Source of the DNA: an uncultured Bdellovibrio sp.
GTDB taxonomy: Bacteria; Bdellovibrionota; Bdellovibrionia; Bdellovibrionales; Bdellovibrionaceae
Direction of reading: 5' to 3'
Length of the DNA stretch: 64,000 bases
NCBI GenBank assembly: GCA_963932905.1
Contig: CAWVRN010000001.1
Span: forward strand, 416,001-480,000
Both the position numbers and the translations under genes were made by a program. The notes below the pieces were generated by a model. It made no database searches and was not told where the DNA came from. It saw only the letters and a list, made by a program, of their open reading frames with translations. Below, one piece after another: positions 33,288-49,055 of the stretch. Each line of letters begins with the position of its first letter. Position 1 is the first letter of the stretch.

Positions 33288-34466
33288 ATGACGTCTACAA
33301 TTGATCTTTGGATCGAATACATTTTACGCTTTTCTCATTTGGTGGCCGGTATTTCCTGGATCGGTAGTTCGTTTTATTTTATCTGGCTTGATAGCAGTTT
33401 TATGCCACCCGAAAAGCCACGTCATAATGTCGAAGGTGAAGTCTACATGGTTCATGGCGGCTTTTATTACCAAGTGGACAAACGAAAAATTTATCCTGGT
33501 GAAATTCCAAAAACACTTCATTGGTTCAAATGGGAAGCAACCCTAACCTGGATCACGGGATTTTTTCTTTTTGCTTTTTTGTATTACTTAAAAGGCGCGA
33601 CTTTGCTGATTAATCCTGAAGCCCTGGCATTGACTCAGTGGCAAGCGATTGGTTTAAGTTTGGGTTTAATTATTGGCTCTTGGTTTGTTTATGATTTGAT
33701 ATGGAATGCAAATCTGATCAAAGTAAAAGCGATAAGTATTTTTCTTTCGCTGTGCTATTTCGTCGCTATGATTTACGGATTAACGCGAATATTCAGTGGG
33801 CGAGGCGCCTTCATATTGATGGGCGTAATCATGGGAAGCTTGATGTTGTTGAACGTATGGGTTCGAATTCTTCCTGGACAAGCCAAAATGCTTAAAGAAG
33901 CCTTGGCCGGACAAGTTCCCGATTATTCTGTCAGTTTGAAATCTAAAGTGCGATCTGTTCACAATACCTATTTTATTTTTCCTGTTTTGTTCATTATGCT
34001 GAGCAATCACTACCCGGGCATTTATGGTCATCAGTACAATTGGGTGCTGTTAATTATCCTCAGTGTGTCGGGCGCTTTGGTTCGTCATACAATGGTAACT
34101 AAAAACACGAAAGAGCGTTGGCTGCTGATTCCTGCCGCGATTGGACTGATGGCTCTTGTTTTCGTAAGTTCAATTCAAGTAAAATCAAGCTCCAATTCCT
34201 CCATGCCCGTGCCAGATAATATGGATTACGCCTACGTAAGAAACATAGTCGAGGCCCGTTGTCAAAGATGCCATAGCACACATAACACCGATGAAAATTT
34301 CAAAGTTCCCCCGAAAGATGTCGTTCTTGAAACCGAAGATCAGCTCAGAAAACACAAAGACTTAATTATCAAGCAAGTTGAAAACAAAGTCATGCCGCTG
34401 GCGAATTTGACGGGCATGACGGATAGTGAGCGTGAAATTTTGGTCAGTTGGATGAAGAAACAGTAG
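33288..34466 (+). CDS. puuD: Membrane urate hydroxylase with a C-terminal cytochrome c (PuuD family)
   Basis: HLVAGISWIGSSFYFIWLD, VHGGFY, LHWFKWEA, RSVHNTY, MLSNHY; heme motif CQRCH; adjacent to the purine catabolic operon. Confidence 0.9.
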   Translation: MTSTIDLWIEYILRFSHLVAGISWIGSSFYFIWLDSSFMPPEKPRHNVEGEVYMVHGGFYYQVDKRKIYPGEIPKTLHWFKWEATLTWITGFFLFAFLYYLKGATLLINPEALALTQWQAIGLSLGLIIGSWFVYDLIWNANLIKVKAISIFLSLCYFVAMIYGLTRIFSGRGAFILMGVIMGSLMLLNVWVRILPGQAKMLKEALAGQVPDYSVSLKSKVRSVHNTYFIFPVLFIMLSNHYPGIYGHQYNWVLLIILSVSGALVRHTMVTKNTKERWLLIPAAIGLMALVFVSSIQVKSSSNSSMPVPDNMDYAYVRNIVEARCQRCHSTHNTDENFKVPPKDVVLETEDQLRKHKDLIIKQVENKVMPLANLTGMTDSEREILVSWMKKQ

Positions 34467-37400
34467 CTAGTAAACCAGCACGCGATGAATTCCTCCGTCT
34501 GGGAAAACTTTCACCTTAATCTGCTCTATCGTTTCTTGATTAGAAATTAAAAATTCTTTTTTATTTCCGGCAAATGCTTTTACCGTGGTTCTGGCAGCCA
34601 GTTCAACCCACTGTCCATTTTTCAAGCCCTCTAGGCTGATGGCAGACGGGTTGTTGTTCACGAAATATTTAAAATCTAAAACAACTCTTTTTATCACGGT
34701 CGGTTTACCAAGTTTTAAAACAAGTTCTTCGAAATGACCGGGTTTACGACTGCGGGCGGATTCAAATCCATCGAACATGTGAATCGGAGGAAACGGGGAA
34801 ACAACTTGATCGGCCGGTCCGTAATGTTGGTTGCTGACGCTGACCAGACAACCTCCAAACGCAGCAGAGGCCAGATTGATCGGACGCTTTTTATCCATAA
34901 GTCGTTTTATATTTTTTTCGGTCTCTAGCGCCGAAGCGGCATAAGGAATAGTCAGTGGTTTATGAGATTTTGGAATAACTTCAGTAAACCGGGTAGCGGT
35001 GGCTTCTTCGAAGAGCTTATAATTTTTCGCCTCTTCCGAAGGAAGCTCAGAGTACAAACCTAAACGAGATAATCCCCCATCAGGAAATACATTCACTTTA
35101 ATTTTTGAATACGGTTTTTCGCTGAGAGGACTGGTTTGTTTAATTTTCACGACACCGTGGCCAACTAGATTCTTCTTTGGGAGTATCAAATCCCAGTTTT
35201 TTGCCGCTTCATCGTAGCCGTATAACTCAATCGCTTCGACTTGATTTCCATCATGGTATTTGGTGGAAACTTGAATGTAACGAATAGGTCCCGCCTTCTT
35301 CATTTCAAATTCAAGTGTGTGACGATCGCTGGGATTGTGGCGTACGGATTCCCAACTATCCATCACTTTACCCTGAGCACAAAACAACTGCGGATCAAAG
35401 ATGGGCTGAAACGAACTGAATAGGTTATCAGCTTGAGCAAATCGTTCATCCGTAACTGAGATTACTTTTGCACCCACTGCCAAATTGTATTGTGCTAATG
35501 GATCTACGGGTCCTGTTTCAACAATGGGATCTGGACGACACGGAATGAAGGCATCAAAAATAAGGGCTTTATAGCCTCGATTCACAATTTGTTCTTGCGA
35601 GAATTTTTTGGGATCAAATTCAGTGTGGAATTTATCAAAGGAAATTCCGCTCAGATTCAATGTTCTAATCAATTCTTGTGCAACTTCAGCGATAAACGGT
35701 ACGGCACCGTTGTCGCCGTTAGCAAAAATAACAAAACCCAATCCTTGATCAGGTCCCGCATAGCAATGCATGAACAAGGCGCGGAAACCTTCGTTGGCAC
35801 CTTGATGAATGACGATTTTGTTTTCGCCGGCTTCGGCAATAAATATTCCTAGACCCATGAGGGCCCCCATGAATTCAAAACTGCCTTTGTCACGACCATG
35901 CAGCATCAAAGCGGCCGTATCGTGTGAAATAGAACCGGAGCCTTCAAGATTCTGATACGCACGAGTCAAATGGACCAAGAATTGGGCCATATCAGCAGAA
36001 GAACCCAATCCACCTGCCGCAAACGCGGGAAATTGCAATCGGGTGCCTGGTACTTCTTTCTGCCCATCAAAATAGCCGCATGCATAGTTTTTGCCCGGAA
36101 TATTTTTTAAATTAAACGTTAGGTTTTTAAGCCCCATTTCGGCAAAGAAGGGATATGAAATTTCTTGAATGGTTTTCTTTGTGATGGATTCAATTAAATG
36201 TTCTAGAACCAAAAATCCACCGCCAGAGTAACTGAATTTCTTGCCGGGCTCGTTAATCACTTTTACATCTTTGAGCAGATCTTGCCACACTGGCATTGGT
36301 TTTCCTAGCGGATGTCCTTGAACATAGTGACCACTTAATGCCGTGTGATTTAAAAGGTGCTCCAATTGAACCGCATCAGTGCTGAGCCTAAATGAAGAAC
36401 CTGCTTTTGCAAGCAATGCATTTACGGAAGAATCTAAAGCGATATTATTTTTTTTGAAAAACTCTAAACAGTAGGCCGCGGCCAAAGGTTTACTTAATGA
36501 AGCGATTTCAAACATCGTATCGGCTTGCACATGACCTTCGCCTTTACGACGCTCACCAAAGCTTAATGTCTGAGTCGAATCAAACGCGTTAATAGAAACG
36601 CTAGCACCTACGATCTTGTATTTTTCTAATAAATCCGAAATTTTATTTCGCACGTGATCTAGAGGGTGTTCGATCATACGTTTGCGAGTGATTTCCCACA
36701 ATGCCTCCCGAGCGGCACCGATTTCATCTTGAAATGATCTCTGTAGGCGCATTTTAAGAGCATTCAAAATTTCATCTGCTGATTTATCCTTAGCCGAAAT
36801 TAAAAATTTAAATCCAAATTTCTTTAGATATTCGCTGCCTAGATTTAAAAGTTCTTGGCGTTTGGTTTCGTCTCCAGCTAAGACTTTTTGCTGTTCGGAT
36901 GCGGCTTGTGAATCCAAGGTTTTTTTGGCTTCGCCTATATTTCCATGAAAATAAGCGGCGTCGATGATGTCTTGTTTCGAAAAGGATAATATAATTGTTT
37001 TTGCGTGCTTTGTGTTTAAAACAAAACCCTGAGCCATGGTTTTCGCAAATGCCAGCGATCCACAATGCTCGAAATAATAATTTAAACGCTCGATATAGGC
37101 ATCTAGCTTGAATCGTCCCGGCATCAATTCTTGTGCTGTCGTCCAGGGGTTCTGTGAATCGCGGATTGATTTAATAGTAAAAGGCAAAAGTAACTCGGTT
37201 GCAAATTCGGGCGGCTTAGGATCTGTCATTAATTGCAGCATGAGTTTCATTGCGATCGGGTACCAACGGGCTGTTTCGGCCGTGTATTTTACCTGAACGA
37301 TCTTATCTGGATTCGATAGGTCTTTGCGTATGAAGTGCATTTCTTCGTGAACAATTTTAATAAATTCAGCTTTATCAAATCGGCCATGGTAAAGTTCATG

Positions 37401-39128
37401 CCATACTTCCCAGCGGGAACGTTCAGCGGTCGCCAAATCATCCATCACTCGAACGGAAACTCCATTTACGTGCGCCGGCAGGGCCACACAGCCATTGCCG
37501 CTTAACCAATCTGTAAGGTACTGCAAGGATTGAAACACGTTGTAGCGAATTTCATCCGGGTGATTGTTAGCAATAAAATCAGATTCTTTGATGTCGGCCA
37601 CGATCAACGAACGAACATAATTTTCATCGTTTTCTGATAGTCCTTCAATGTCAGCGCCGTGAATGAAATCCAAAATTTGTTTGTGATACTTGGGTTGCAG
37701 CAGCGACGTCACTAGTTCATCAAGTCCAGCACTGTTGCCAGCGCTATGTTGGCGCCATGCTTCGACCAGCGCTAAACCCAAGCGCACAAAATCAGGATGC
37801 GCGACCCAGAATCCTGATAGATCGCGTTTCATTTGTGTAACGACGTCTTTTATGAAGCCAAGTAAGGTCATTTGAAATGAAGGGGACTGCGGATCCGTAT
37901 CGAGTGGCAAAATACCATACATGCCGCCGACTTTGATTCCGCCTCGCCCGCCAACTACTTTGGCAAGCAGGTGATGTGAGGCTTTGATGTATTTAATGAC
38001 GATGTTAGGGTCCGCTTTGACCGGAATTCTGTAGTGTGAGTCTTCTTTGAAAATTCGTGCTGTGGAAGCCAAGAAATCATGCCAGCCCAGGGAAGCGCCG
38101 ACAAAGTAAGGGTGAAGTGCGTCCATAATTTCGTTCACACGTAAGATGGCGCGGGGATTTTCAAGAACAATCATTAGACGAACAGTACCTAACTGATAAC
38201 TAGGGAATTGCTGTTTTATTTTGCTTTCTGCCGTTGAAATCATTTTCGCCAGGTAAGCCGCTTCTTCTTCATTTTCCAGTTTGGGTACATAAAAGCACAG
38301 TGATTCTGGACGATTCCAATTTTTATACAAGTGCAAAGCGAAATCATACAGGTGCAACGGAATAGGATTTCTATCTTGAAATAAAAATGTACATGGCAAT
38401 GCTAAACCAGGAAAACGTTTAATCGGCAAAGCCAAGTGACCTTTTTCTAGTTCGTAATTCTTTTCATCGCCGCTGACTTTTAGAGTGCCGTCAAAACACG
38501 CCGTCAAATTAACGGCCGCATCAATCAGATCGGCCCGCATTGGTGTTTTAGAATCTTCGTCATCGGCGCCCCATTTAGGATTGAACTTTTGAGTTTTCAA
38601 TAACTCTTCGACAATTTTGGGCTCGTTTTTTATTTTACGATGATAGGAATTCATAGCGTTGATAGCTAATTTCGCGCTATCCGGAGGGCCAAACAGAGTT
38701 ACGTGAGGTCCTTGCAGATACGGCGGGATTGCAGCCACCTGAGCACCCTTGGGGCCGAGGTAATGTTTGTCTTTTGCCCCAAGAACAATGCGACCTTGAT
38801 GATCCTCTAAACCAATAATTGTTTTATAATCACTGTCGGTAATTTCACGTTCAAGCGATGTATTAAAATCCGAGCACGCTTTTACCCGTTCATCGATAAA
38901 TTTTCTATCGATGCGACGCTGCTGAAGAACCTTTTTTAAATCGTCTTTTGTTTCTAGGTACAAATCAGAAAGAAATTTCAAGGCGGACGGAGTTTCTAAT
39001 CCTCCGCCTTCGCCGACTTCCACCATTCCATTTACGGATTTAATTGCCGTCGCATTTTTTAATAAATGATCCGCTAGAGGAGCTGGGATGTAGTCGTGGT
39101 AATATTCGATTTCAAAAAAGGATTTCAT
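34467..39128 (-). CDS. Four-domain fusion: malate synthase + OHCU decarboxylase + beta-lactamase-fold serine hydrolase + allantoicase
   Basis: One uninterrupted ORF; likely start ATG 39128, 4 nt after the uraH stop (ORF track gives 39161). Malate synthase motifs ADDEDS, YVPKLE, VLEN, GWHDF, WVAHP, GNGCV, MDDLATAERSR. OHCU decarboxylase motifs HGNIG, SEQ, YLKKFGFKFLI. Serine hydrolase motifs SLSK, YSG, HQG. Allantoicase repeats MDSWESVR/FDGFESAR and PDGG twice. Confidence 0.9.
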   Translation of the reverse strand: MKSFFEIEYYHDYIPAPLADHLLKNATAIKSVNGMVEVGEGGGLETPSALKFLSDLYLETKDDLKKVLQQRRIDRKFIDERVKACSDFNTSLEREITDSDYKTIIGLEDHQGRIVLGAKDKHYLGPKGAQVAAIPPYLQGPHVTLFGPPDSAKLAINAMNSYHRKIKNEPKIVEELLKTQKFNPKWGADDEDSKTPMRADLIDAAVNLTACFDGTLKVSGDEKNYELEKGHLALPIKRFPGLALPCTFLFQDRNPIPLHLYDFALHLYKNWNRPESLCFYVPKLENEEEAAYLAKMISTAESKIKQQFPSYQLGTVRLMIVLENPRAILRVNEIMDALHPYFVGASLGWHDFLASTARIFKEDSHYRIPVKADPNIVIKYIKASHHLLAKVVGGRGGIKVGGMYGILPLDTDPQSPSFQMTLLGFIKDVVTQMKRDLSGFWVAHPDFVRLGLALVEAWRQHSAGNSAGLDELVTSLLQPKYHKQILDFIHGADIEGLSENDENYVRSLIVADIKESDFIANNHPDEIRYNVFQSLQYLTDWLSGNGCVALPAHVNGVSVRVMDDLATAERSRWEVWHELYHGRFDKAEFIKIVHEEMHFIRKDLSNPDKIVQVKYTAETARWYPIAMKLMLQLMTDPKPPEFATELLLPFTIKSIRDSQNPWTTAQELMPGRFKLDAYIERLNYYFEHCGSLAFAKTMAQGFVLNTKHAKTIILSFSKQDIIDAAYFHGNIGEAKKTLDSQAASEQQKVLAGDETKRQELLNLGSEYLKKFGFKFLISAKDKSADEILNALKMRLQRSFQDEIGAAREALWEITRKRMIEHPLDHVRNKISDLLEKYKIVGASVSINAFDSTQTLSFGERRKGEGHVQADTMFEIASLSKPLAAAYCLEFFKKNNIALDSSVNALLAKAGSSFRLSTDAVQLEHLLNHTALSGHYVQGHPLGKPMPVWQDLLKDVKVINEPGKKFSYSGGGFLVLEHLIESITKKTIQEISYPFFAEMGLKNLTFNLKNIPGKNYACGYFDGQKEVPGTRLQFPAFAAGGLGSSADMAQFLVHLTRAYQNLEGSGSISHDTAALMLHGRDKGSFEFMGALMGLGIFIAEAGENKIVIHQGANEGFRALFMHCYAGPDQGLGFVIFANGDNGAVPFIAEVAQELIRTLNLSGISFDKFHTEFDPKKFSQEQIVNRGYKALIFDAFIPCRPDPIVETGPVDPLAQYNLAVGAKVISVTDERFAQADNLFSSFQPIFDPQLFCAQGKVMDSWESVRHNPSDRHTLEFEMKKAGPIRYIQVSTKYHDGNQVEAIELYGYDEAAKNWDLILPKKNLVGHGVVKIKQTSPLSEKPYSKIKVNVFPDGGLSRLGLYSELPSEEAKNYKLFEEATATRFTEVIPKSHKPLTIPYAASALETEKNIKRLMDKKRPINLASAAFGGCLVSVSNQHYGPADQVVSPFPPIHMFDGFESARSRKPGHFEELVLKLGKPTVIKRVVLDFKYFVNNNPSAISLEGLKNGQWVELAARTTVKAFAGNKKEFLISNQETIEQIKVKVFPDGGIHRVLVY

Positions 39129-39132
39129 AGTA

Positions 39133-39456
39133 CTAGCTGCCTCGGTAGGTGCTGTAACCATATGGGCTTAACAATAAAGGCACGTGGTATTTTCTGTTTG
39201 TGTCTGTGATATTGAACGCAACGGGTACAGCTAAAAAAAACGGAGTTAGATTTTGCTTCTTAAAGTAGTTTTCAATTTCAAAAGTTAAACGGTATTGCGC
39301 GATTTCATAGGGGCAATCAAAATTGATTCGTCCATCACTATTAGTTTTATCTTGTTTTACTTGTGACCACTGATTTCCATTTAATTTTTCTAACGTCACA
39401 GTGACATCTTTAGCTGGCATGCCCAAATTGATGTCCAAAATATGAGTACTAATCAT
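39133..39456 (-). CDS. uraH: 5-hydroxyisourate hydrolase (transthyretin-like)
   Basis: ISTHILD, TNSDGR, YHVPLLLSPYGYSTYRGS signature. Start moved to ATG 39456 (AAAGGA RBS). Confidence 0.96.
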   Translation of the reverse strand: MISTHILDINLGMPAKDVTVTLEKLNGNQWSQVKQDKTNSDGRINFDCPYEIAQYRLTFEIENYFKKQNLTPFFLAVPVAFNITDTNRKYHVPLLLSPYGYSTYRGS

Positions 39457-39457
39457 G

Positions 39458-40246
39458 TTACGATCCTTTGTTTTCTGATAATTTAGATTTATACGATAGT
39501 ATCTGCGCAGCGATACTAATGGCAATTTCGGGCGGCGTGTTGTCACCGAAATCTAGCCCAATCGGGCAATGTAGTCGCTGAAGAGCCTCATCGGAAACCC
39601 CGAGCTTGCGCAGTTCACCTTTGATCTTTTCACCTTTAAGTTTTGAGCCTATAACGCCAAGAAATGAAAAACGTTGATGCTGCTTCAGGGCTTTCTCTAG
39701 AACGGGAACATCGGCTGCATGTCCTTGAGTCAGCGACATTAAATAAGTTCCGTCGGGTAATGCGTCTACATGATTTGCCAAATTGTCTGTTTGAATTTTT
39801 TTTATGTTGAATGAATCTGGCAATTTATCTACCCATTCTTTGCGGTTATCAAAAACTTGTAGCTGACATGACCACGTTTGCATGACTCGGCACAGTTCCT
39901 GCGAAACATGTCCTGCACCAAAGATCGCCACCGACCAATTACTAAAGAACTGCGTATCAAAAAATACGCTGACCTCACCACCGCAGGTCATTCCAATATC
40001 AGTCTGTAAATTATAAGTTCCCATTGAAGGAGCCGATTTCGCTTGCAGCATTTCAACAGCGCGTTTGATACAAAACCCTTCAATTTTGCCACCGCCTACG
40101 GTTCCAAATCGTAATCCCTCTTTGGTCACCAGCATCTTAGCACCGACTTCTTGAGGTGCACTACCTCGGACGTTTACCAGGGTTACGATCACGTGATCTG
40201 TATGACTGCGGGATACATCACTCAGATGTTCAAGCCAAACGGTCAC
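39458..40246 (-). CDS. xdhC: Xanthine dehydrogenase accessory protein
   Basis: GSAPQEVGAKM, GTVGGG, GMTCGG, FGAGHV, GVIGSK, CPIG, PPEIAISIAA. Confidence 0.93.
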   Translation of the reverse strand: MTVWLEHLSDVSRSHTDHVIVTLVNVRGSAPQEVGAKMLVTKEGLRFGTVGGGKIEGFCIKRAVEMLQAKSAPSMGTYNLQTDIGMTCGGEVSVFFDTQFFSNWSVAIFGAGHVSQELCRVMQTWSCQLQVFDNRKEWVDKLPDSFNIKKIQTDNLANHVDALPDGTYLMSLTQGHAADVPVLEKALKQHQRFSFLGVIGSKLKGEKIKGELRKLGVSDEALQRLHCPIGLDFGDNTPPEIAISIAAQILSYKSKLSENKGS

Positions 40247-42603
40247 GGCGTTAACTCTTTCATTTTCATATAAATCTGCTCTTGAGTGGCCGGGATTTTC
40301 AATTTCACAGGTTTATCTAGTTTGGCGACGGCATTTTTTGGTTTATAGTAACTGAGTGCATTTTTCACGGCCGACCAAACGGAAATCGCAAGTAAAAGTG
40401 GCGGCTCACCGACCGCTTTGCTGGCGCGAACGTTACGCACATTAATTTGATTATCAATGAGATGGCATTTAAATACGCGCGGGATATCTTGCACGCTGGG
40501 GATTTTATAAGTACTTGGTGTGTTCGACAGCAGTCGACCATTTTTATAGAATAAGTTTTCTGTAGTTACCCAGCCCATTCCTTGTACAAAGGCACCGGTT
40601 ACTTGCCCATGATCGATGGCCTCATTAATTGGACGTCCTAGATCCATCAGGATTTCCGAGCGTAACACTTTTAATTCACCTGTGTAACGATCGATTGAAA
40701 CTTCGCTGGCCGCTACGCCGTTAGTGAAATAGAAGAATGGGCTACCTTGACCAGTTTCCTTATTATAGAAAATTCCGGGGTATTTGAAATAACCCTGCTG
40801 AGTTAGCGATTGACGATTTAAGTAGGCTTCTAAAACGAGTTCACTAAACGCGATGGTTTCTTTCGGATTTGAATTATCGTACACTTGACCATTTTGAAAT
40901 TCGATCGTTTGCCAATGTTGAACGGCTTCGATTTGAATTTCTGGAGCGGTACCGGCGCCGGCGGTGGGTTTACCACGCCACGCTTTTGGGCGCGCTAGCA
41001 TGGCCTTGGCCACCTTGGCTAGTCGTTCGCGTATACCTTGTGCGGCCGTTAAAGCCGCTTGGCAGTTGATATCGCTACCACTAGAGGCTGCTGTTGCTGA
41101 CGTATTTGGAATTTTCTCGGTAGATGTCGTCATTACTTTTACATCTTCAATAGGAATAGAAAAACATTCCGCAACGACCTGTGCGATTTTGATATTCACA
41201 CCCTGGCCCATTTCGGTGGCGCCTGTAGACACCTGAACGGATCCGTCCATGTGCACATTCACAAGCGCACTACCTTGATTTAAAAAACGAGTTGTAAATG
41301 AAATGCCAAACTTTACTGCTGTTACGGACAAACCTCGATACGTCGAATGATGACTGGCATTGTGGTCGTCTATTTCTTTGCGCCACTGTTTGTATTGCGT
41401 TTGTTTTTCAATATCCGTAAATAGTTGCGGCAAAACACTATCTTCTATTTTTTGCCCATAAGGAGTCGTTTGGTCTTTTTGATATGTGTTTATTTTTCTG
41501 ATTTCTAAAGAGTCTTTTTTCAGAAAAACAGCGATGTCTTCAATAATGGATTCGATAGTGGCAACACCTTTGGGGCCGCCGAATCCACGAAATGCTGTAT
41601 TGGGAGCCGTGTGAGTTTTACAAACTTGTCCGGCCACTTTAAAATTAGGAATGAAGTAGGCGTTATCTAAATGAAGCATAGCGCGTTCCATAATGGCGGT
41701 CGATAGATCGGCGTAGGCGCCGCCGTCAGAAAATAACTCGGCTTTCAAAGCCGTGATTTTCCCTGAATTATCAAAACCCACTTCGTAGAAATTTTTAAAT
41801 GGATTGCGTTTGCCTGTCATGATCATGTCATCATCTTTAGTCAAAATGATGCGTGCCGGGCGTTTTAGTTTCTGTGCCACAAGTGCCGCAAATACGGCAA
41901 AAGGGGCCGCTTGAGATTCTTTGCCTCCAAATGCGCCGCCCATACGCTTAACAACACATACAACTTGGTGATGTCGTAAACCTAAAGCCTCGGCGACTAG
42001 ATGTTGAACTTCCGTAGGATGTTGAGACGAGGAATGAATTTCAATTTGATCGTCTTCTTTAGGGTAAGCAATGGATGCTTGAGATTCTAAATAGAAATGC
42101 TCTTGGCCCGCGATCTCGATGTCCCCTTTTAGTTTATTTGGCGCCGATTTCAATGCATCGTCGACATCACCTCGCTGAATTGTACGCAAAGGACCGATGA
42201 AAAATTTAGTATCGATCGCTTTTTGTAAATCAAGAGTGGGCTCTAGTTCTTCGATCTCTAGTTTGATTTTCGCTTTGGCCTCGTGAAAGATATCCCGTTT
42301 TGTTGAGGCTATTATGGCAATCGGTTCACCGACATACTGAACTTGGTCTTCCGCCAAGAAAACCTGATCGTGAAAAATTGAACCCCACAAATTGTGCTTT
42401 AAATCTTTGTGCGTATAAACACCCAATATTTCGGGCATGGCCAAGCACGCAGTGAAATCTAGTTTCTTAATTTTGCCATAAGCCACGGGACTATAAAACA
42501 CGTCCACGAATACTTCGCCATGAACCAAGGGGCGGTCATCTATGTATTCGGCTTTTCCGACTACGTAACTTCGTCCTGAATCGTGATAGGCGGATTTACT
42601 CAT
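40243..42603 (-). CDS. xdhB: Xanthine dehydrogenase molybdopterin-binding subunit
   Basis: QEHFYLE, RMGGAFGGKESQ, AFRGFGGP, KFGISFT, EMGQG, SATAASSG, SKAVGEPP. Confidence 0.95.
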   Translation of the reverse strand: MSKSAYHDSGRSYVVGKAEYIDDRPLVHGEVFVDVFYSPVAYGKIKKLDFTACLAMPEILGVYTHKDLKHNLWGSIFHDQVFLAEDQVQYVGEPIAIIASTKRDIFHEAKAKIKLEIEELEPTLDLQKAIDTKFFIGPLRTIQRGDVDDALKSAPNKLKGDIEIAGQEHFYLESQASIAYPKEDDQIEIHSSSQHPTEVQHLVAEALGLRHHQVVCVVKRMGGAFGGKESQAAPFAVFAALVAQKLKRPARIILTKDDDMIMTGKRNPFKNFYEVGFDNSGKITALKAELFSDGGAYADLSTAIMERAMLHLDNAYFIPNFKVAGQVCKTHTAPNTAFRGFGGPKGVATIESIIEDIAVFLKKDSLEIRKINTYQKDQTTPYGQKIEDSVLPQLFTDIEKQTQYKQWRKEIDDHNASHHSTYRGLSVTAVKFGISFTTRFLNQGSALVNVHMDGSVQVSTGATEMGQGVNIKIAQVVAECFSIPIEDVKVMTTSTEKIPNTSATAASSGSDINCQAALTAAQGIRERLAKVAKAMLARPKAWRGKPTAGAGTAPEIQIEAVQHWQTIEFQNGQVYDNSNPKETIAFSELVLEAYLNRQSLTQQGYFKYPGIFYNKETGQGSPFFYFTNGVAASEVSIDRYTGELKVLRSEILMDLGRPINEAIDHGQVTGAFVQGMGWVTTENLFYKNGRLLSNTPSTYKIPSVQDIPRVFKCHLIDNQINVRNVRASKAVGEPPLLLAISVWSAVKNALSYYKPKNAVAKLDKPVKLKIPATQEQIYMKMKELTP

Positions 42604-44024
42604 TAGAAATTCTCCTGCACAAATCGATCGAATAAATCTAGGCAGATTTTCGAACGAAATTCAGATGATCCACGCAAATCGGAAATCGGGGTGATGCTGG
42701 CGGCAATCATTTGCTTTGCTTGATCAGCCAAAGCCGACGTCATTTCTTGTCCTTCCAGAACTTTTTCCACATCAAACAGACGTAGGGCCTTAGGACCAAC
42801 GCCACCATAAGCAATTTTGGCTTTTTCGATTTTTTTGTTCTGAGTTTGGAAAACAAAACTTGAATTGACACATGAAATGTCTAAATCACGTCGCTGCGAG
42901 ACTTTGAATAGCCCTATCTTACTTGATTGAGAGTTTGGAATTTTAAAACGAATACTTGTGATAAACTCATCATCTTTTAAATCAAAACTTTTGTAGCCTT
43001 TGATAAAATCAGTGAGTGGCACACTACGCAGACCTTTTGGGCTGAACAGTTCTACGACGGCATCTGCTGTTAACAAATAGGGTGTGGTATCTGCAATGGG
43101 TGACCCATTGGCTAAGTTACCCACAAGGGTGGCCGCATTTTTAATTTGAGGTGATGCGAAGATATTTAAAAACTCAGCAAACTTAGGGCTGCGACCTTCT
43201 AGAAACTTTTGAAGTGTTGTCAAATTTACCCGCGCGCCAACGATCACTTGATCAGCGTCTTGTTTCAGCGCGTACATTTCAGGAATTAAATGCAGACTCA
43301 TTAAATTAATGCCGGGATTTTTACCCTTGTTAATTTGAACACCGATATCGGTCGCGCCAGAAAAGATACGAACTTTAGGATGTAATTTTTTGTATTCAGC
43401 CGCTTGAGTTAATGTAGTGGGCGCAAAAAATTCTTTCTCACCCACAGTAATTTTAATCGGTATTGTTTGGTTGGCCTCTAAATCTTTGGTCAGTTTTTCA
43501 TAGTTATAACATGACTTTAATGGCGCGACTTTTTTGGTGTCTACGGCCATAGCCGCATTGATGATAGGCTGGTATCCAGTGCAACGGCAAAGATTGCCCG
43601 TTACATAGTTTTTAACTTTCTGTTCGGAAATGTTTTTCGTGTTTTCAAACATGCTCGATAAGGCCATGACGAAACCCGGTGTGCAGAATCCACACTGGCC
43701 GCCAAAATTTTTAACCATCGCATCTTGAACTTCGGACAATTGATTATTTTTTTCTAAACCTTCGACGCTAATTATATGCGACATATCCATTAAGAACGAT
43801 GTGCTGATACACGAATTGATGGACATAAATTTATCGGCGTCAGTAGAATGACGTCGATACAGGATTGTGCAGGCACCACAGTCACCTTCGGCGCATACCA
43901 CTTTGGTACCTGTTAGACCGACTTCGTATCGCAATAAGCTACTAAACGGCATAAACGCGCGTTCGCTGCTGATTTTGTGTACGGTTCCGTTAATCGTTAG
44001 TACAATATAGTCTCTGACTTGCAT
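42603..44024 (-). CDS. xdhA: Xanthine dehydrogenase small subunit ([2Fe-2S] and FAD domains)
   Basis: GTKVVCAEGDCGAC, QCGFCTPG, GNLCRCTGY, FASPQIKNAATLVGN. Confidence 0.95.
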   Translation of the reverse strand: MQVRDYIVLTINGTVHKISSERAFMPFSSLLRYEVGLTGTKVVCAEGDCGACTILYRRHSTDADKFMSINSCISTSFLMDMSHIISVEGLEKNNQLSEVQDAMVKNFGGQCGFCTPGFVMALSSMFENTKNISEQKVKNYVTGNLCRCTGYQPIINAAMAVDTKKVAPLKSCYNYEKLTKDLEANQTIPIKITVGEKEFFAPTTLTQAAEYKKLHPKVRIFSGATDIGVQINKGKNPGINLMSLHLIPEMYALKQDADQVIVGARVNLTTLQKFLEGRSPKFAEFLNIFASPQIKNAATLVGNLANGSPIADTTPYLLTADAVVELFSPKGLRSVPLTDFIKGYKSFDLKDDEFITSIRFKIPNSQSSKIGLFKVSQRRDLDISCVNSSFVFQTQNKKIEKAKIAYGGVGPKALRLFDVEKVLEGQEMTSALADQAKQMIAASITPISDLRGSSEFRSKICLDLFDRFVQENF

Positions 44025-44056: not shown

Positions 44057-44557
44057 TTAGTAACTGATCTTATCGACTTTAGATGACCAAATTTGAAATA
44101 CTTTAAGTGCCTCGTCGCGCAACATAGCTTCCATTGGTATTTTTCGTTTTTCAAGTGGCTTAGGAATTTCTTGATAAATAAAATCATCATCGAACTGAAT
44201 TCCAGCCGCATCTGTTTTTGTATTAGCGAAATAAATTTTGTTGATTCGTGCCCAGTAGATAGCGGAAAGACACATGGGACATGGCTCGCAACTGGTGTAA
44301 ATTTCGCACTCTTCTAGACTGAACGTATTTAATTTTTGGCAGGCTTGACGAATAGCTTCAACTTCCGCATGAGCTGTCGGGTCATTGTTTGTAGTTACTT
44401 TGTTCCAGCCTTCACCGACGATGACGTTATCTTTGACGATCACAGCACCAAATGGTCCCCCATTTAATGAAAGGACGTTGTTTTTCGACAACTCGATCGC
44501 ACGTCTCATAAAGTTTAAGCGTAATTCATTTTTTTGTTTCATTTTAGTAGAGTTCAT
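44057..44557 (-). CDS. guaD: Guanine deaminase (cytidine-deaminase fold, B. subtilis GuaD type)
   Basis: GGPFGAVIV, DPTAHAEV, SCEPCPMC, FDDDFIY; immediately upstream of xdhA. Confidence 0.9.
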   Translation of the reverse strand: MNSTKMKQKNELRLNFMRRAIELSKNNVLSLNGGPFGAVIVKDNVIVGEGWNKVTTNNDPTAHAEVEAIRQACQKLNTFSLEECEIYTSCEPCPMCLSAIYWARINKIYFANTKTDAAGIQFDDDFIYQEIPKPLEKRKIPMEAMLRDEALKVFQIWSSKVDKISY

Positions 44558-44644: not shown

Positions 44645-45253
44645 TTAAGGTTGGCCATTCCTGTATATGATTTGCAGCAAATTTTCATCTTTCTGCATAT
44701 ATTTATAGCCGTAAGAAGCAAGGTAGTTGCTGGCTTCCGCCTGCTCGGGGCTTAAATAAATTGCAAATCGTGATAGCTCGGGGAATGAAAACGGCTTTTT
44801 GGACCAACGGTGGCCGGTGGCGGATGGCCCCGCTTTGGATAAAAATAGAATTTCGGTTTTTAATCTGTCAATAGGGCAGGTATTTTCGCCAGATTTTGCA
44901 GTTTTTGCGTACGTCGATTTTTGAATCGCCTTTAATTTTTTCAATAGAAATTTTTGTTCATCTAACGGTAGATTGACGGTCGCGGGTTTGCCGTGATCGG
45001 GAGCAAAAACCGCGGTTTCGTCAGCTATACAATAACCAGCAATCCAAACCCATGATCCTGAGGCTAAACCGATAGATTTAGATTCCACTAATTTAGGATA
45101 ACCTTTATGGAAGTGAAATTCTTTTTCCAGCGGTGCCAAATCCAATTTAGCTTTCTTCTTATTTTTGTGGCTGGAAAGAACGATAACTTGTTGAGCAGGA
45201 TCTGCCAGTGCAATCAAACCTAAAAGAAAAAAACTAAGAACCAATTTTAACAT
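44645..45253 (-). CDS. Secreted hypothetical protein
   Basis: 202-aa ORF with a signal peptide, 8 nt downstream of the aminopeptidase gene. Confidence 0.65.
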   Translation of the reverse strand: MLKLVLSFFLLGLIALADPAQQVIVLSSHKNKKKAKLDLAPLEKEFHFHKGYPKLVESKSIGLASGSWVWIAGYCIADETAVFAPDHGKPATVNLPLDEQKFLLKKLKAIQKSTYAKTAKSGENTCPIDRLKTEILFLSKAGPSATGHRWSKKPFSFPELSRFAIYLSPEQAEASNYLASYGYKYMQKDENLLQIIYRNGQP

Positions 45254-46640: not shown

Positions 46641-47261
46641 ATGATTCATGCCATATTTGTTTTAATTTTTGCATTTGCGATTGGTCAGTTAATCATTGTG
46701 AAGACGAACGATAAGTTTTCAACACGTCGGGATCCGGCGGCGATTAGACAGACTTACGATTTCACTAACTTAAAGGGAAATGCTTTAGATATAGCCTTGA
46801 AACAAAAAATGCTGGGCGACCTGGAAGTGGTTAAGACCGCTGATAATTTTGGGATCTCTTTTGGTCATTTTGCGTTTTCAACTTCAGACGGGCAAAAATT
46901 TTTGGGTTGTGAGTATTACGAAAAAGTAGTGGCTGTCTTTGAAGCGGAAGGGTCAGCAGTCAGCGGTCGAAAGTCCACGATGGAGATCTCGGGCCCTTGC
47001 AAATACTCTGAAAATTTGACGAAAATTCAAGCTGCCCTTATCCCTATCAAAAAAATTATGGGTGATACGCCTCAGGATGGCGAGATGACTTTTCAAGGGG
47101 ACATTCCAGTTAACGTTAAATTTCAAAATTTAACGGATTCATGGCCGACGCAGTGGAATTTAGTGAATGTTCGAATGGAATCACCTCAATACGTTTTTAT
47201 TATCGATCGTAACGAGATTTCCAAAATTATGGGACAGCCCTTGCTGATTTCTGTTCAATAA
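46641..47261 (+). CDS. Membrane-anchored or exported hypothetical protein
   Basis: 206-aa ORF with an N-terminal hydrophobic helix and a Cys pair. Confidence 0.7.
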   Translation: MIHAIFVLIFAFAIGQLIIVKTNDKFSTRRDPAAIRQTYDFTNLKGNALDIALKQKMLGDLEVVKTADNFGISFGHFAFSTSDGQKFLGCEYYEKVVAVFEAEGSAVSGRKSTMEISGPCKYSENLTKIQAALIPIKKIMGDTPQDGEMTFQGDIPVNVKFQNLTDSWPTQWNLVNVRMESPQYVFIIDRNEISKIMGQPLLISVQ

Positions 47262-47275
47262 GATAATAATTTCAC

Positions 47276-48268
47276 ATGATTTTTCCTACGGTAACGCCAC
47301 CTTACTGGGCGCCTGAAGGCCATTCGCAAACATTAGTGGCTCATTTAGCTGCGCCATTAATTGGGCCTAAAATTTCTTTTCATGACGAAAATAAAAAACT
47401 GATTTCCTGTTTAGAAGACGATGATAAATTGCTTATCAAATATCATCTGCGTGATCAAAAAAAATGGGTTTTGCTAGCTCATGGTTTGGCTGGGGATAGT
47501 GAATCGCAATACATCAAGCGAATGACTCGTTTAGCATTAGAGAAAAATATTTCGGTTTTACGTTTTAATCATCGTAACTGTGGTGAATCTGTGGGGTATG
47601 CTAACAAGACTTACCATGCTGGTCGTGGTGAAGATATTTACGCGGCCGCAAACTGGGTTCGTTCCAATTATCCTGGTAGTGAAATCATTGTTGTCGGTTT
47701 TTCATTAAGTGGAAATACAGTGCTCGACATGGCGATTCGTTTTGAAGATAAGATTGATATCAAGTGTACCATCGCCGTCAATGCACCGATTGATTTGACT
47801 CAAGCATCAATTAATATCGCACAAAAAGAAAACTTAGCTTACAATAAATACTTTGCTCGACTTTTGCATCTTTCCAACATGAATTTGGCGAAAAAACAAA
47901 AAGGTGGCTTGGGCGAGGTGATTCGAAATACGAAGGTTCCGCGATTTGCGGTTCTTGGTGATTTCGATCAGTTGTTTGTGGCGCCATTAAACGGTTTCAA
48001 GGATGCGTGGGATTACTACAAGCAATGTTCTACAATCGATCGCTTAGATGCGATCAAATCACCCGTAACCATACTGATGGCAAAGGATGATCCGATAGTT
48101 CCATTTCGAATGTATGAAGGTAAAAAATTTAATTCTAATTTTCAAGTTAGGATTGAAAAGACGGGTGGGCATTTGGGCTATCTCTCCCAATCGAAAACAC
48201 CACTCGGCGATAATCGCTGGATGGATTGGTACCTGATTGAACAAATCGTCGAGACGTTTAAAAAATAA
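47276..48268 (+). CDS. YheT-like alpha/beta hydrolase
   Basis: GHSQT, HGLAG, GFSLSG nucleophile elbow, AKDDP, GGHLG. Confidence 0.88.
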   Translation: MIFPTVTPPYWAPEGHSQTLVAHLAAPLIGPKISFHDENKKLISCLEDDDKLLIKYHLRDQKKWVLLAHGLAGDSESQYIKRMTRLALEKNISVLRFNHRNCGESVGYANKTYHAGRGEDIYAAANWVRSNYPGSEIIVVGFSLSGNTVLDMAIRFEDKIDIKCTIAVNAPIDLTQASINIAQKENLAYNKYFARLLHLSNMNLAKKQKGGLGEVIRNTKVPRFAVLGDFDQLFVAPLNGFKDAWDYYKQCSTIDRLDAIKSPVTILMAKDDPIVPFRMYEGKKFNSNFQVRIEKTGGHLGYLSQSKTPLGDNRWMDWYLIEQIVETFKK

Positions 48269-49055
48269 CACCATCTGGTTTTAATTCATCTGCTAACTTC
48301 ATTTCGGCTTCAGATTGAATCGGCCCAAGAAATACTAATTTCTTACGACGTCTCATTTCCGTAATCATCGATTCATCAACCAATGGTCGATTCAAATACG
48401 ATATAGGAGCGATAAAAACATCACCGCGAATAGAAATAGCCGCCTCCAAACCCAATGTAGCAAAGGATTTCAGGCGAGTGACTTCGGGAATTGACGTTCC
48501 GTATACCCACATCGGTTTTAATTCCTTGATGGCTTTGATGACAATGTCGACGGGTGAATTAATGAGAATGCGGTCTTCCAATTTATTTTTTTCAACAAAA
48601 CTAATGACGTCTTTATGAATGTCAGTCTCGTTCGACAAAATATTTAAAATATAGTGGTCAGTGGTGATGACTTGAAGGGCCTTTTCTAATGGCGTTATGT
48701 TTTCATAAAATTCATTTAGTTCTGCCAGTTTGTAACCGTGAACAAATTTGCCTTTGAATTTCTTTTTGTCGCGCGCCCAAGTCATGAATGCGTCCACATT
48801 AAAATTGTAATCTGAAATCAACACGCGATCGGCGGTCATATAAACATTGATCCATGTCAGGGTCGGTTTGCTGTCAGGTCGCACATGATCTTTAGAGAAA
48901 ACACCCACAGTGATGGGGCGGTTGGTGGTCATGGCACTTGACAGGAAAGGATGCTCAAATGGTTTATAAGGCAACGAAAGGCCCCACATGCGAACGATCA
49001 AGCCAATTAAAAGCGCTATTACTACTGTACCTAAACTAATCAAAAATAACCGCAT
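48258..49055 (-). CDS. Membrane-anchored GDPD/PLC-like TIM-barrel protein, apparently degenerate
   Basis: N-terminal TM, 'VYMTADRVLI' and C-terminal 'PDGVIF' resemble the GDPD fold; the canonical HRG motif is not seen. Confidence 0.5.
   Translation of the reverse strand: MRLFLISLGTVVIALLIGLIVRMWGLSLPYKPFEHPFLSSAMTTNRPITVGVFSKDHVRPDSKPTLTWINVYMTADRVLISDYNFNVDAFMTWARDKKKFKGKFVHGYKLAELNEFYENITPLEKALQVITTDHYILNILSNETDIHKDVISFVEKNKLEDRILINSPVDIVIKAIKELKPMWVYGTSIPEVTRLKSFATLGLEAAISIRGDVFIAPISYLNRPLVDESMITEMRRRKKLVFLGPIQSEAEMKLADELKPDGVIF

Follow-up and report, generated by a model that had tools for sequence, protein, structure and literature searches.

A conserved four-module protein of Bdellovibrionota predicted to complete urate breakdown, with a candidate serine-type allantoinase

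Which reactions can one polypeptide carry out when four modules of lower urate catabolism are joined in it, and which enzymes of the pathway do the unusual modules replace? This question is raised by a gene on the reverse strand (34467..39128) of a 64,000-nucleotide stretch, hereafter the window, of an uncultured Bdellovibrio sp. genome (GenBank assembly GCA_963932905.1, contig CAWVRN010000001.1, positions 416,001 to 480,000). The gene encodes, in this order, a malate-synthase-like (MSL) module, a 2-oxo-4-hydroxy-4-carboxy-5-ureidoimidazoline (OHCU) decarboxylase, a serine hydrolase of the beta-lactamase fold (PF00144; BL) and two allantoicase repeats. We consider it fairly probable that the product is a cytoplasmic multi-enzyme which completes urate breakdown together with the PuuD-type urate oxidase and the 5-hydroxyisourate (HIU) hydrolase encoded beside it. 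In this scheme, the OHCU decarboxylase module would yield (S)-allantoin; BL, with Ser888 as the nucleophile, would open the hydantoin ring to give allantoate, replacing AllB or PuuE; the two allantoicase repeats would release urea and ureidoglycolate; and MSL, acting as a ureidoglycolate lyase and possibly retaining malate synthase activity, would produce glyoxylate and urea. The roles given here to BL and MSL are those that we infer, and substrates might be channelled along such a chain.

The fusion gene is real and did not arise in assembly. Its architecture recurs in at least 120 full-length homologues (1510-1656 aa, 55-100% identity; 631 hits overall), which contain the same five Pfam families. 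Their source names point to Bdellovibrionota, and they are annotated merely as 'serine hydrolase', 'malate synthase' or similar. Among 301 genomes of the phylum, the fusion was carried by 34 (20 of 169 genera, at least nine families), the same 34 that have both BL and MSL modules, and 32 of these hold it in an open frame of 1413-1645 aa. Metagenome loci retrieved with BL (n = 80, one of them identical to the window and thus not independent) showed the full order MSL-OHCU decarboxylase-BL-allantoicase in 65 cases; nine were cut by contig ends and six were stand-alone. Contigs of an independent groundwater run, X1, spanned all three junctions between the modules at 98-99% identity and ran through them with neither a gap nor a joint. 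In an RNA library, where DNA may also be present, 26 of 30 bins contained pieces 95-99% similar. Runs X6 and X7 left some bins empty, and no meaning is attached to this. The preliminary description of the window, made from the letters alone, had proposed a single chain of four lower-urate-catabolism modules, and had pointed to a domain-architecture search and to the junctions as the places to check it; Pfam domains, homologues and junction-spanning contigs bear this proposal out, and separate genes joined in error were not found. The contrary reading, in which assembly or sequencing error merged four separate genes into one long frame, could draw on the split forms seen in two of the 34 genomes (G107 and G270). 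Against the open frames in the other 32, the shared domain order at 65 of 80 metagenome loci, with nine more cut solely by contig ends, and the seamless coverage of the junctions in run X1, we give it next to no credence, and the sequence data, so far as they reach, already refute it.

The two split forms differ from each other. One locus (L088; G270:C12:1-12000) shows a natural split, in which a 774-aa BL-allantoicase open reading frame (ORF) adjoins PuuD and a separate MSL gene lies on the opposite strand; the same genome additionally has a stand-alone allantoicase, AllB and a second MSL. At the other (L089; G107:C32:2000-12000), the fusion falls into two ORFs of 730 and 777 aa and just 64 OHCU decarboxylase residues match, which may reflect a frameshift or a decaying copy. 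A full four-module fusion was also present on a contig assigned outside Bdellovibrionota, in a record labelled as a Chlamydiales metagenome-assembled genome (L085), and this could be a binning error or a gene transfer. At window position 35196, one contig of RNA library X6, from a relative about 96% identical, has two extra T's in allantoicase repeat 1; these may be an error or may mark a frameshifted strain.

The reverse-strand frame 34467..39161 encodes 1564 aa without an internal stop, and the likely start at 39128 (Met12 of the long frame) leaves a protein of 1553 aa. The latter start is likely to be preferable to the ATG at 39161, since it lies 4 nt past the TAG that ends the upstream HIU hydrolase gene and is preceded, at 11 nt, by GAGG, since residues 1-11 of the long frame are missing from 71% of 30 aligned homologues, and since the database copy of the protein has 1553 aa. 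The single uninterrupted ORF of about 1553 aa that had been described before therefore holds, with 39128 as the preferred start. Residue numbers below count from the 39161 ATG. Pfam assigned MS_TIM-barrel to residues 251-463 (E 1.6e-18), MS_C to 536-655, OHCU_decarbox to 718-829 (E 6e-19), Beta-lactamase (PF00144) to 837-1155 (E 9e-31) and Allantoicase twice (E 3.8e-45). The domain limits first drawn by eye agree with these to about 100 nt, and the hydrolase module extends to about 35547. All modules score well below the NCBI equivalog cut-offs, and every module is therefore a divergent version of its family. In an alignment of 30 full-length homologues, no length-variable linkers were seen at the module junctions and the catalytic motifs were invariant; the positions R249, E334, D362, D575, H739 and E756-Q757, which had been noted as retained, were present and unchanged throughout.

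The second and fourth modules match known urate-pathway families. The OHCU decarboxylase module (36672..37067, reverse strand; residues about 699-830) matched PF09349 with 69.5 bits (threshold 24) and lies below the NCBIfam cut-offs. It retains H739 and E756-Q757, which align with the HP..G and EQ motifs of 3O7H and 5UOU, His and Glu-Gln positions that we take to be catalytic. The allantoicase part comprises repeat 1 (35046..35474, reverse strand; residues 1230-1372) and repeat 2 (34470..34898, reverse strand; residues about 1422-1564). It matched PF03561 with 153.9 bits across two stretches and the yeast allantoicase 1SG3 with an E value of 1.4e-30. The score against the allantoicase model TIGR02961 was 174 bits for a cut-off of 277.9, and the fusion allantoicase is therefore a divergent subgroup.

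The PuuD-type membrane urate oxidase gene (33288..34466, forward strand), with Urate_ox_N and a C-terminal CxxCH, is convergent with the fusion gene, and the two stops abut. On the other side lies the HIU hydrolase gene of the transthyretin family (39133..39456, reverse strand; likely start Met31 of a 137-aa ORF), in which no signal peptide is evident. At 20 of 20 sampled fusion loci of other genomes, HIU hydrolase was directly upstream and PuuD was nearby, whereas xdh genes were present at only 7 to 9 of the 20. Because both neighbours are kept at all sampled loci and xdh is not, PuuD, HIU hydrolase and the fusion form the conserved unit. Queries of the AllB type and of the PF04115 lyase type gave no match at any of the 20 loci. 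Taken at face value, the conserved unit has no allantoinase and no ureidoglycolate lyase.

The BL module (35547..36653, reverse strand; residues 837-1205) had entered the preliminary description as a serine hydrolase with no role given; the module is present, and comparative genomics points to the missing allantoinase. It scored 107.7 bits against PF00144 (threshold 27), a family of peptidases, beta-lactamases, esterases and amidases. The motifs S888-L-S-K891, Y978-S-G980 and H1119-Q-G1121, which presumably represent the S-x-x-K, Y-x-N and K/H-x-G motifs of the family, are invariant in 30 fusions. The predicted model (predicted local distance difference test score, pLDDT, 93) has a DD-peptidase/class C fold, with template modelling scores (TM-scores) of 0.67-0.77 to the IS11 esterase, the R61 DD-peptidase and ADC class C enzymes; among solved structures, its closest matches belong to the esterases, DD-peptidases and class C beta-lactamases and share about 20% identity with it. 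BL is a narrow subfamily (47 hits at E<=1e-5), for which a protein atlas returned only generic PF00144 clusters. Relatives of BL that stand alone appear to be eukaryotic: a marine protist transcript is among them, another adjoins Rubicon-homology, protein kinase and eEF1A-like genes, and, of 22 relatives, 6 have C-terminal tripeptides resembling peroxisomal targeting signal 1 (PTS1). Such ends would fit a peroxisomal ureide enzyme.

BL sits between the allantoin-making OHCU decarboxylase and the allantoate-using allantoicase modules, and its distribution is complementary to that of AllB. No TIGR03178 (AllB) or TIGR03212 (PuuE) domain was found in the fusion protein. The window's own genome is 98.6% complete; PuuE was not found in it, and its sole AllB-like match proved to be dihydroorotase (NF006559, 668 bits for a cut-off of 482). 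Among the 301 phylum genomes, 61 have allantoicase, 34 in the fusion and 27 as a stand-alone gene only, with both kinds in G270. AllB above the cut-off occurred in 27 genomes, namely G270 and 26 of the 27 with stand-alone allantoicase only; the last of the latter, G163, has a truncated AllB copy beside its allantoicase. AllB nearly always adjoins the stand-alone allantoicase, and in G270 it is on a different contig. By contrast, AllB was found in none of the 33 fusion-only genomes, and no genome among the 301 has PuuE above the cut-off; 42 gave weak TIGR03212 matches (155 bits or less for a cut-off of 424.6), which were rejected as ordinary deacetylases. AllB queries also gave no match near the 80 metagenome BL loci, and urate clusters of other phyla combine AllB, allantoicase and MSL but never include BL. 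Related genomes in these BL and AllB counts are not independent of one another. Since AllB and PuuE are absent from the fusion-only genomes and AllB goes with the stand-alone allantoicase, BL is probably an allantoinase of the serine type, the third kind of this enzyme. It would fill the same pathway position and phyletic slot as AllB/DAL1, a metal amidohydrolase, and PuuE, with its polysaccharide-deacetylase fold and NodB-type site, but with an unrelated fold and a serine nucleophile of the DD-peptidase/class C type.

Several points weigh against this assignment. The Asn of the Y-x-N motif is Gly in BL; G270 has AllB as well as a BL-allantoicase gene; an unrecognised allantoinase may be encoded elsewhere in the genome; and PF00144 enzymes are not known to open hydantoin rings. 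Together with nearest structures that are esterases, DD-peptidases and class C beta-lactamases of only about 20% identity, the retained AllB of G270 and the lack of a known precedent would suit a BL that cuts some other amide, such as a ureide side product or a peptide, or that serves as a scaffold, with allantoin left intact or opened by some enzyme that escaped recognition. A mere scaffold is at odds with the invariant Ser-x-x-Lys, Tyr and His-x-Gly motifs. The placement of the module between the maker of allantoin and the user of allantoate, its strict complementarity with AllB (0 of 33 fusion-only genomes versus 26 of 27 stand-alone genomes and one truncated copy) and the absence of BL from the AllB-bearing clusters of other phyla all speak against a BL that is not an allantoinase, and we regard that alternative as doubtful.

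The MSL module (37131..39128, reverse strand; residues 12 to about 677) had been labelled a malate synthase. It has the fold and the catalytic residues of that family, but is not a canonical member of it. R249 (IKRFPG), E334 (VLEN), D362 (WHDF) and D575 (MDDLATAE) are invariant in 30 fusions and align with E. coli Arg166, the Mg ligands Glu250 and Asp278, and the base Asp447; also retained are C558, M414, W452 and P456 (Cys438, Met330, Trp365 and Pro369 in the numbering of E. coli malate synthase A). The predicted model (pLDDT 92.9) shows an N-terminal clasp, a TIM barrel and a C-terminal lid, and its best PDB matches were 3CUZ and 3CV2 (TM-score 0.80-0.84, normalised by target length). However, the module scored 123.1 bits against TIGR01344 for a cut-off of 594.5, and 67 bits against PF01274 (threshold 26.4), where canonical enzymes reach 265-356 bits. 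The canonical GRWD (Arg276-Trp277-Asp278) is replaced by GWHD (W360-H361-D362) in the window protein and in every MSL sequence inspected (22-row alignment), whereas 11 of 15 canonical-type rows had GRWD in a motif scan covering 21 sequences, the pattern being unmatched in the other four. MSL carries three insertions, which follow strand 1 and the GGM motif and precede the catalytic Asp; its post-GGM loop is two residues longer than the canonical one. In a FastTree analysis (52 rows, three clades, sister relations not given), MSL formed its own clade apart from canonical malate synthases. Thus MSL keeps the fold and the above eight residues of malate synthase A (AceB; 3CUZ/3CV2), but differs from it in its 22-25% identity, in GWHD and the three insertions, and in not being linked to isocitrate lyase.

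By its gene content, the window's organism also possesses the usual glyoxylate shunt. Elsewhere in the genome, on another contig, isocitrate lyase is directly preceded by a canonical malate synthase A (G000:C3:262366-265332; 549-aa ORF, 335.6 bits against PF01274), and because of this aceB-aceA pair, MSL is not the housekeeping malate synthase. The canonical enzyme tracks isocitrate lyase in both genomes that have it (the own genome and G303), whereas MSL tracks urate genes. Stand-alone MSL is widespread, with 379 relatives in species-representative genomes, including those of Myxococcota, Bradymonadia, Verrucomicrobiota and Planctomycetota. Urate-pathway genes were present within the fetched flanks (up to 10 kb) of 31 of 80 stand-alone MSL loci, with HIU hydrolase at 24, AllB at 22, allantoicase at 21 and PuuD at 21. 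A PF04115-type lyase query matched at none of these 80 loci, and PF04115 was found neither in the window's genome nor in any of the 34 fusion genomes. A test for mutual exclusion of MSL and PF04115 within the phylum was uninformative, MSL being restricted there to fusion genomes. From its company, MSL very probably acts at the end of the pathway.

A protein with a comparable association is known from zebrafish. The report by Dembech et al. (PNAS 2023, PMC10120013) describes the malate-synthase-like protein DrMSL as a ureidoglycolate lyase without malate synthase activity, places only eukaryotic sequences in the lyase group, in which the acetyl-CoA site is degenerate and its interface holds a 2-aa insertion, and hypothesises a bifunctional lyase/synthase ancestor. 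DrMSL resembles the fusion MSL in being a divergent member of the malate synthase family tied to allantoicase and urate catabolism, in coexisting with a canonical malate synthase-isocitrate lyase pair, and in having Arg276 substituted. It differs in the substitutions themselves, which are Arg276Ile and Trp365Met in DrMSL, whereas the fusion MSL has Trp at 276 and keeps Trp365. The fusion MSL is moreover bacterial, with a largely kept acetyl-CoA pocket and about 130 extra residues, and is joined to three enzymes, its activity being predicted.

We favour, in the overall scheme, a lyase at the MSL position, while the exact activity can be assigned only tentatively. By sequence and context, MSL may be a ureidoglycolate lyase only, or equally a malate synthase only, each of these being possible without being likely; that it combines the two activities is a more doubtful proposition, and that it does something else again is improbable. 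In favour of a lyase stand the absence of PF04115 from the window's genome and all 34 fusion genomes and the pairing of isocitrate lyase with the canonical synthase and not with MSL. Other observations stand against it. Of the acetyl-CoA pocket equivalents (Ile94 to Leu, Thr95 to Phe, Gly96, Met102 to Leu, Met330 and Pro369; Met102 is Met in the fusion consensus), five of six are kept or conservative, in an alignment that is weak at strand 1 and has no proven lyase sequence for calibration. Trp365, which is Met in the zebrafish protein, is kept, and zebrafish-type sequences were absent among the matches listed, so that the tree does not place MSL relative to proven lyases. No urate genes were found in the fetched flanks of 49 of the 80 stand-alone MSL loci. 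Neither PF04115 nor MSL occurs in 24 of the 27 genomes with stand-alone allantoicase only, and a dedicated lyase therefore seems dispensable in the phylum. Finally, four of five urate-cluster genomes of other phyla lack both a canonical malate synthase and isocitrate lyase, and glyoxylate carboligase above the cut-off was found in none of the five, so MSL may be their glyoxylate sink. A TIGR01504 hit of 332 bits in one genome (G301) was rejected, being far under the 711-bit cut-off.

In a rival reading, the N-terminal module would be a true malate synthase and nothing more, in a chain running from OHCU to malate with acetyl-CoA, where ureidoglycolate decays spontaneously or through allantoicase. 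On a malate synthase A fold, the module keeps Cys438 and the full catalytic set of Arg, two Mg ligands and Asp base, together with the pocket positions 94 (as Leu), Gly96, Met102 (by the fusion consensus), Met330 and Pro369. In malate synthase G, the place of Arg276-Trp277-Asp278 of malate synthase A is taken by Phe-Leu-Asp, and, if this correspondence is right, loss of Arg276 need not abolish activity. The window's own genome, moreover, has no urease alpha subunit and no urea carboxylase above the cut-off; the two urea released per urate probably go unused in this organism, and the glyoxylate carbon would therefore be the main gain of the pathway. The gene content of the five other-phyla cluster genomes likewise speaks for a synthase. 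On the other hand, a plain malate synthase is hard to reconcile with 123 bits against an equivalog cut-off of 594.5, with GWHD for GRWD in every member inspected, and with a gene that tracks urate genes when the canonical enzyme tracks isocitrate lyase (two of two genomes); according to PMC10120013, the zebrafish relative linked to allantoicase has lost malate synthase activity. The synthase-only reading accordingly stays, for us, a tentative one.

The preliminary description had let the chain run through to malate. The modules from OHCU to the end of the pathway are indeed in one chain, but malate as the product is one of three readings of MSL, and a eukaryotic MSL lyase is known, as reported in PMC10120013. 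In its fullest form, one chain would turn OHCU and acetyl-CoA into malate, two urea and CO2, with a serine-nucleophile allantoinase on a fold not known for this reaction, and with the MSL site splitting ureidoglycolate and then condensing the bound glyoxylate with acetyl-CoA; we hold this to be rather unlikely. The earlier picture is thus right in outline, and two unusual modules, BL and MSL, need reassigning or testing.

Other known arrangements share parts of this design. The allantoicase-OHCU decarboxylase bifunctional protein (NF010371 / PRK13797) joins two of the same modules, and examples adjoin AllB and MSL at two loci (L044 and L071); it has two domains in the reverse order with canonical sequences, and has neither BL nor MSL. 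In the yeast DAL cluster (DAL7) and in bacterial purine operons with glcB, a malate synthase family gene is likewise tied to allantoin degradation. According to PMC10120013, DAL7 and glcB are genuine malate synthases with a dedicated PF04115-type lyase (DAL3), whereas no such lyase was found with the fusion.

MSL also occurs in other fusions. In two proteins of about 1030 aa (P0356 and P0364), MSL is joined to a canonical pair of allantoicase repeats; both end in a PTS1-like tripeptide (AKL or ASL) and share GWHD and two insertions with the bacterial MSL clade. In a record of Luteolibacter sp. AS25, an OHCU decarboxylase-MSL fusion of the opposite order (L018:9452-11995, 848-aa ORF) is clustered with genes for a cofactorless uricase, a fused XdhAB, a cupin, an amidohydrolase, HIU hydrolase and a LysR regulator; no allantoicase repeat was seen there.

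The fusion is a real, conserved and unstudied multi-enzyme. A literature search found no paper on the four-module architecture or on a beta-lactamase-fold allantoinase, in agreement with the earlier remark that the architecture was unfamiliar, and a term search of a 2026 review of urate enzymes turned up neither Bdellovibrio nor lactamase nor serine hydrolase. If the assignment of BL is true, allantoinase gains a third, non-homologous form on the penicillin-binding fold, and this serine-type enzyme would close a gap in the pathway of an entire predatory bacterial phylum and, it appears, of some marine eukaryotes. If that of MSL is true, a terminal enzyme can be named for the urate clusters of Myxococcota, Verrucomicrobiota, Planctomycetota and Bdellovibrionota. 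Two questions raised by the 2023 report (PMC10120013) are directly touched by the MSL clade: whether a lyase arose from malate synthase solely in eukaryotes, and whether there was ever a bifunctional form. A bifunctional MSL would be a living counterpart of the lyase/synthase ancestor hypothesised there, and the lyase branch would not be confined to eukaryotes.

In the surroundings of the gene, three ORFs near the operon, at 44645-45253 (202 aa), 46641-47261 (206 aa) and 48258-49055 (265 aa), gave no Pfam match at E<=0.001. The fusion is the last gene of an apparent reverse-strand operon in the order guanine deaminase-xdhABC-HIU hydrolase-fusion. Its first gene (44057..44557) encodes a zinc deaminase of the cytidine/guanine deaminase family, and the block that follows (39458..44024) consists of xdhA (42603-44024), xdhB (40243-42603) and xdhC (39458-40246), predicted to specify xanthine dehydrogenase and its maturation factor.

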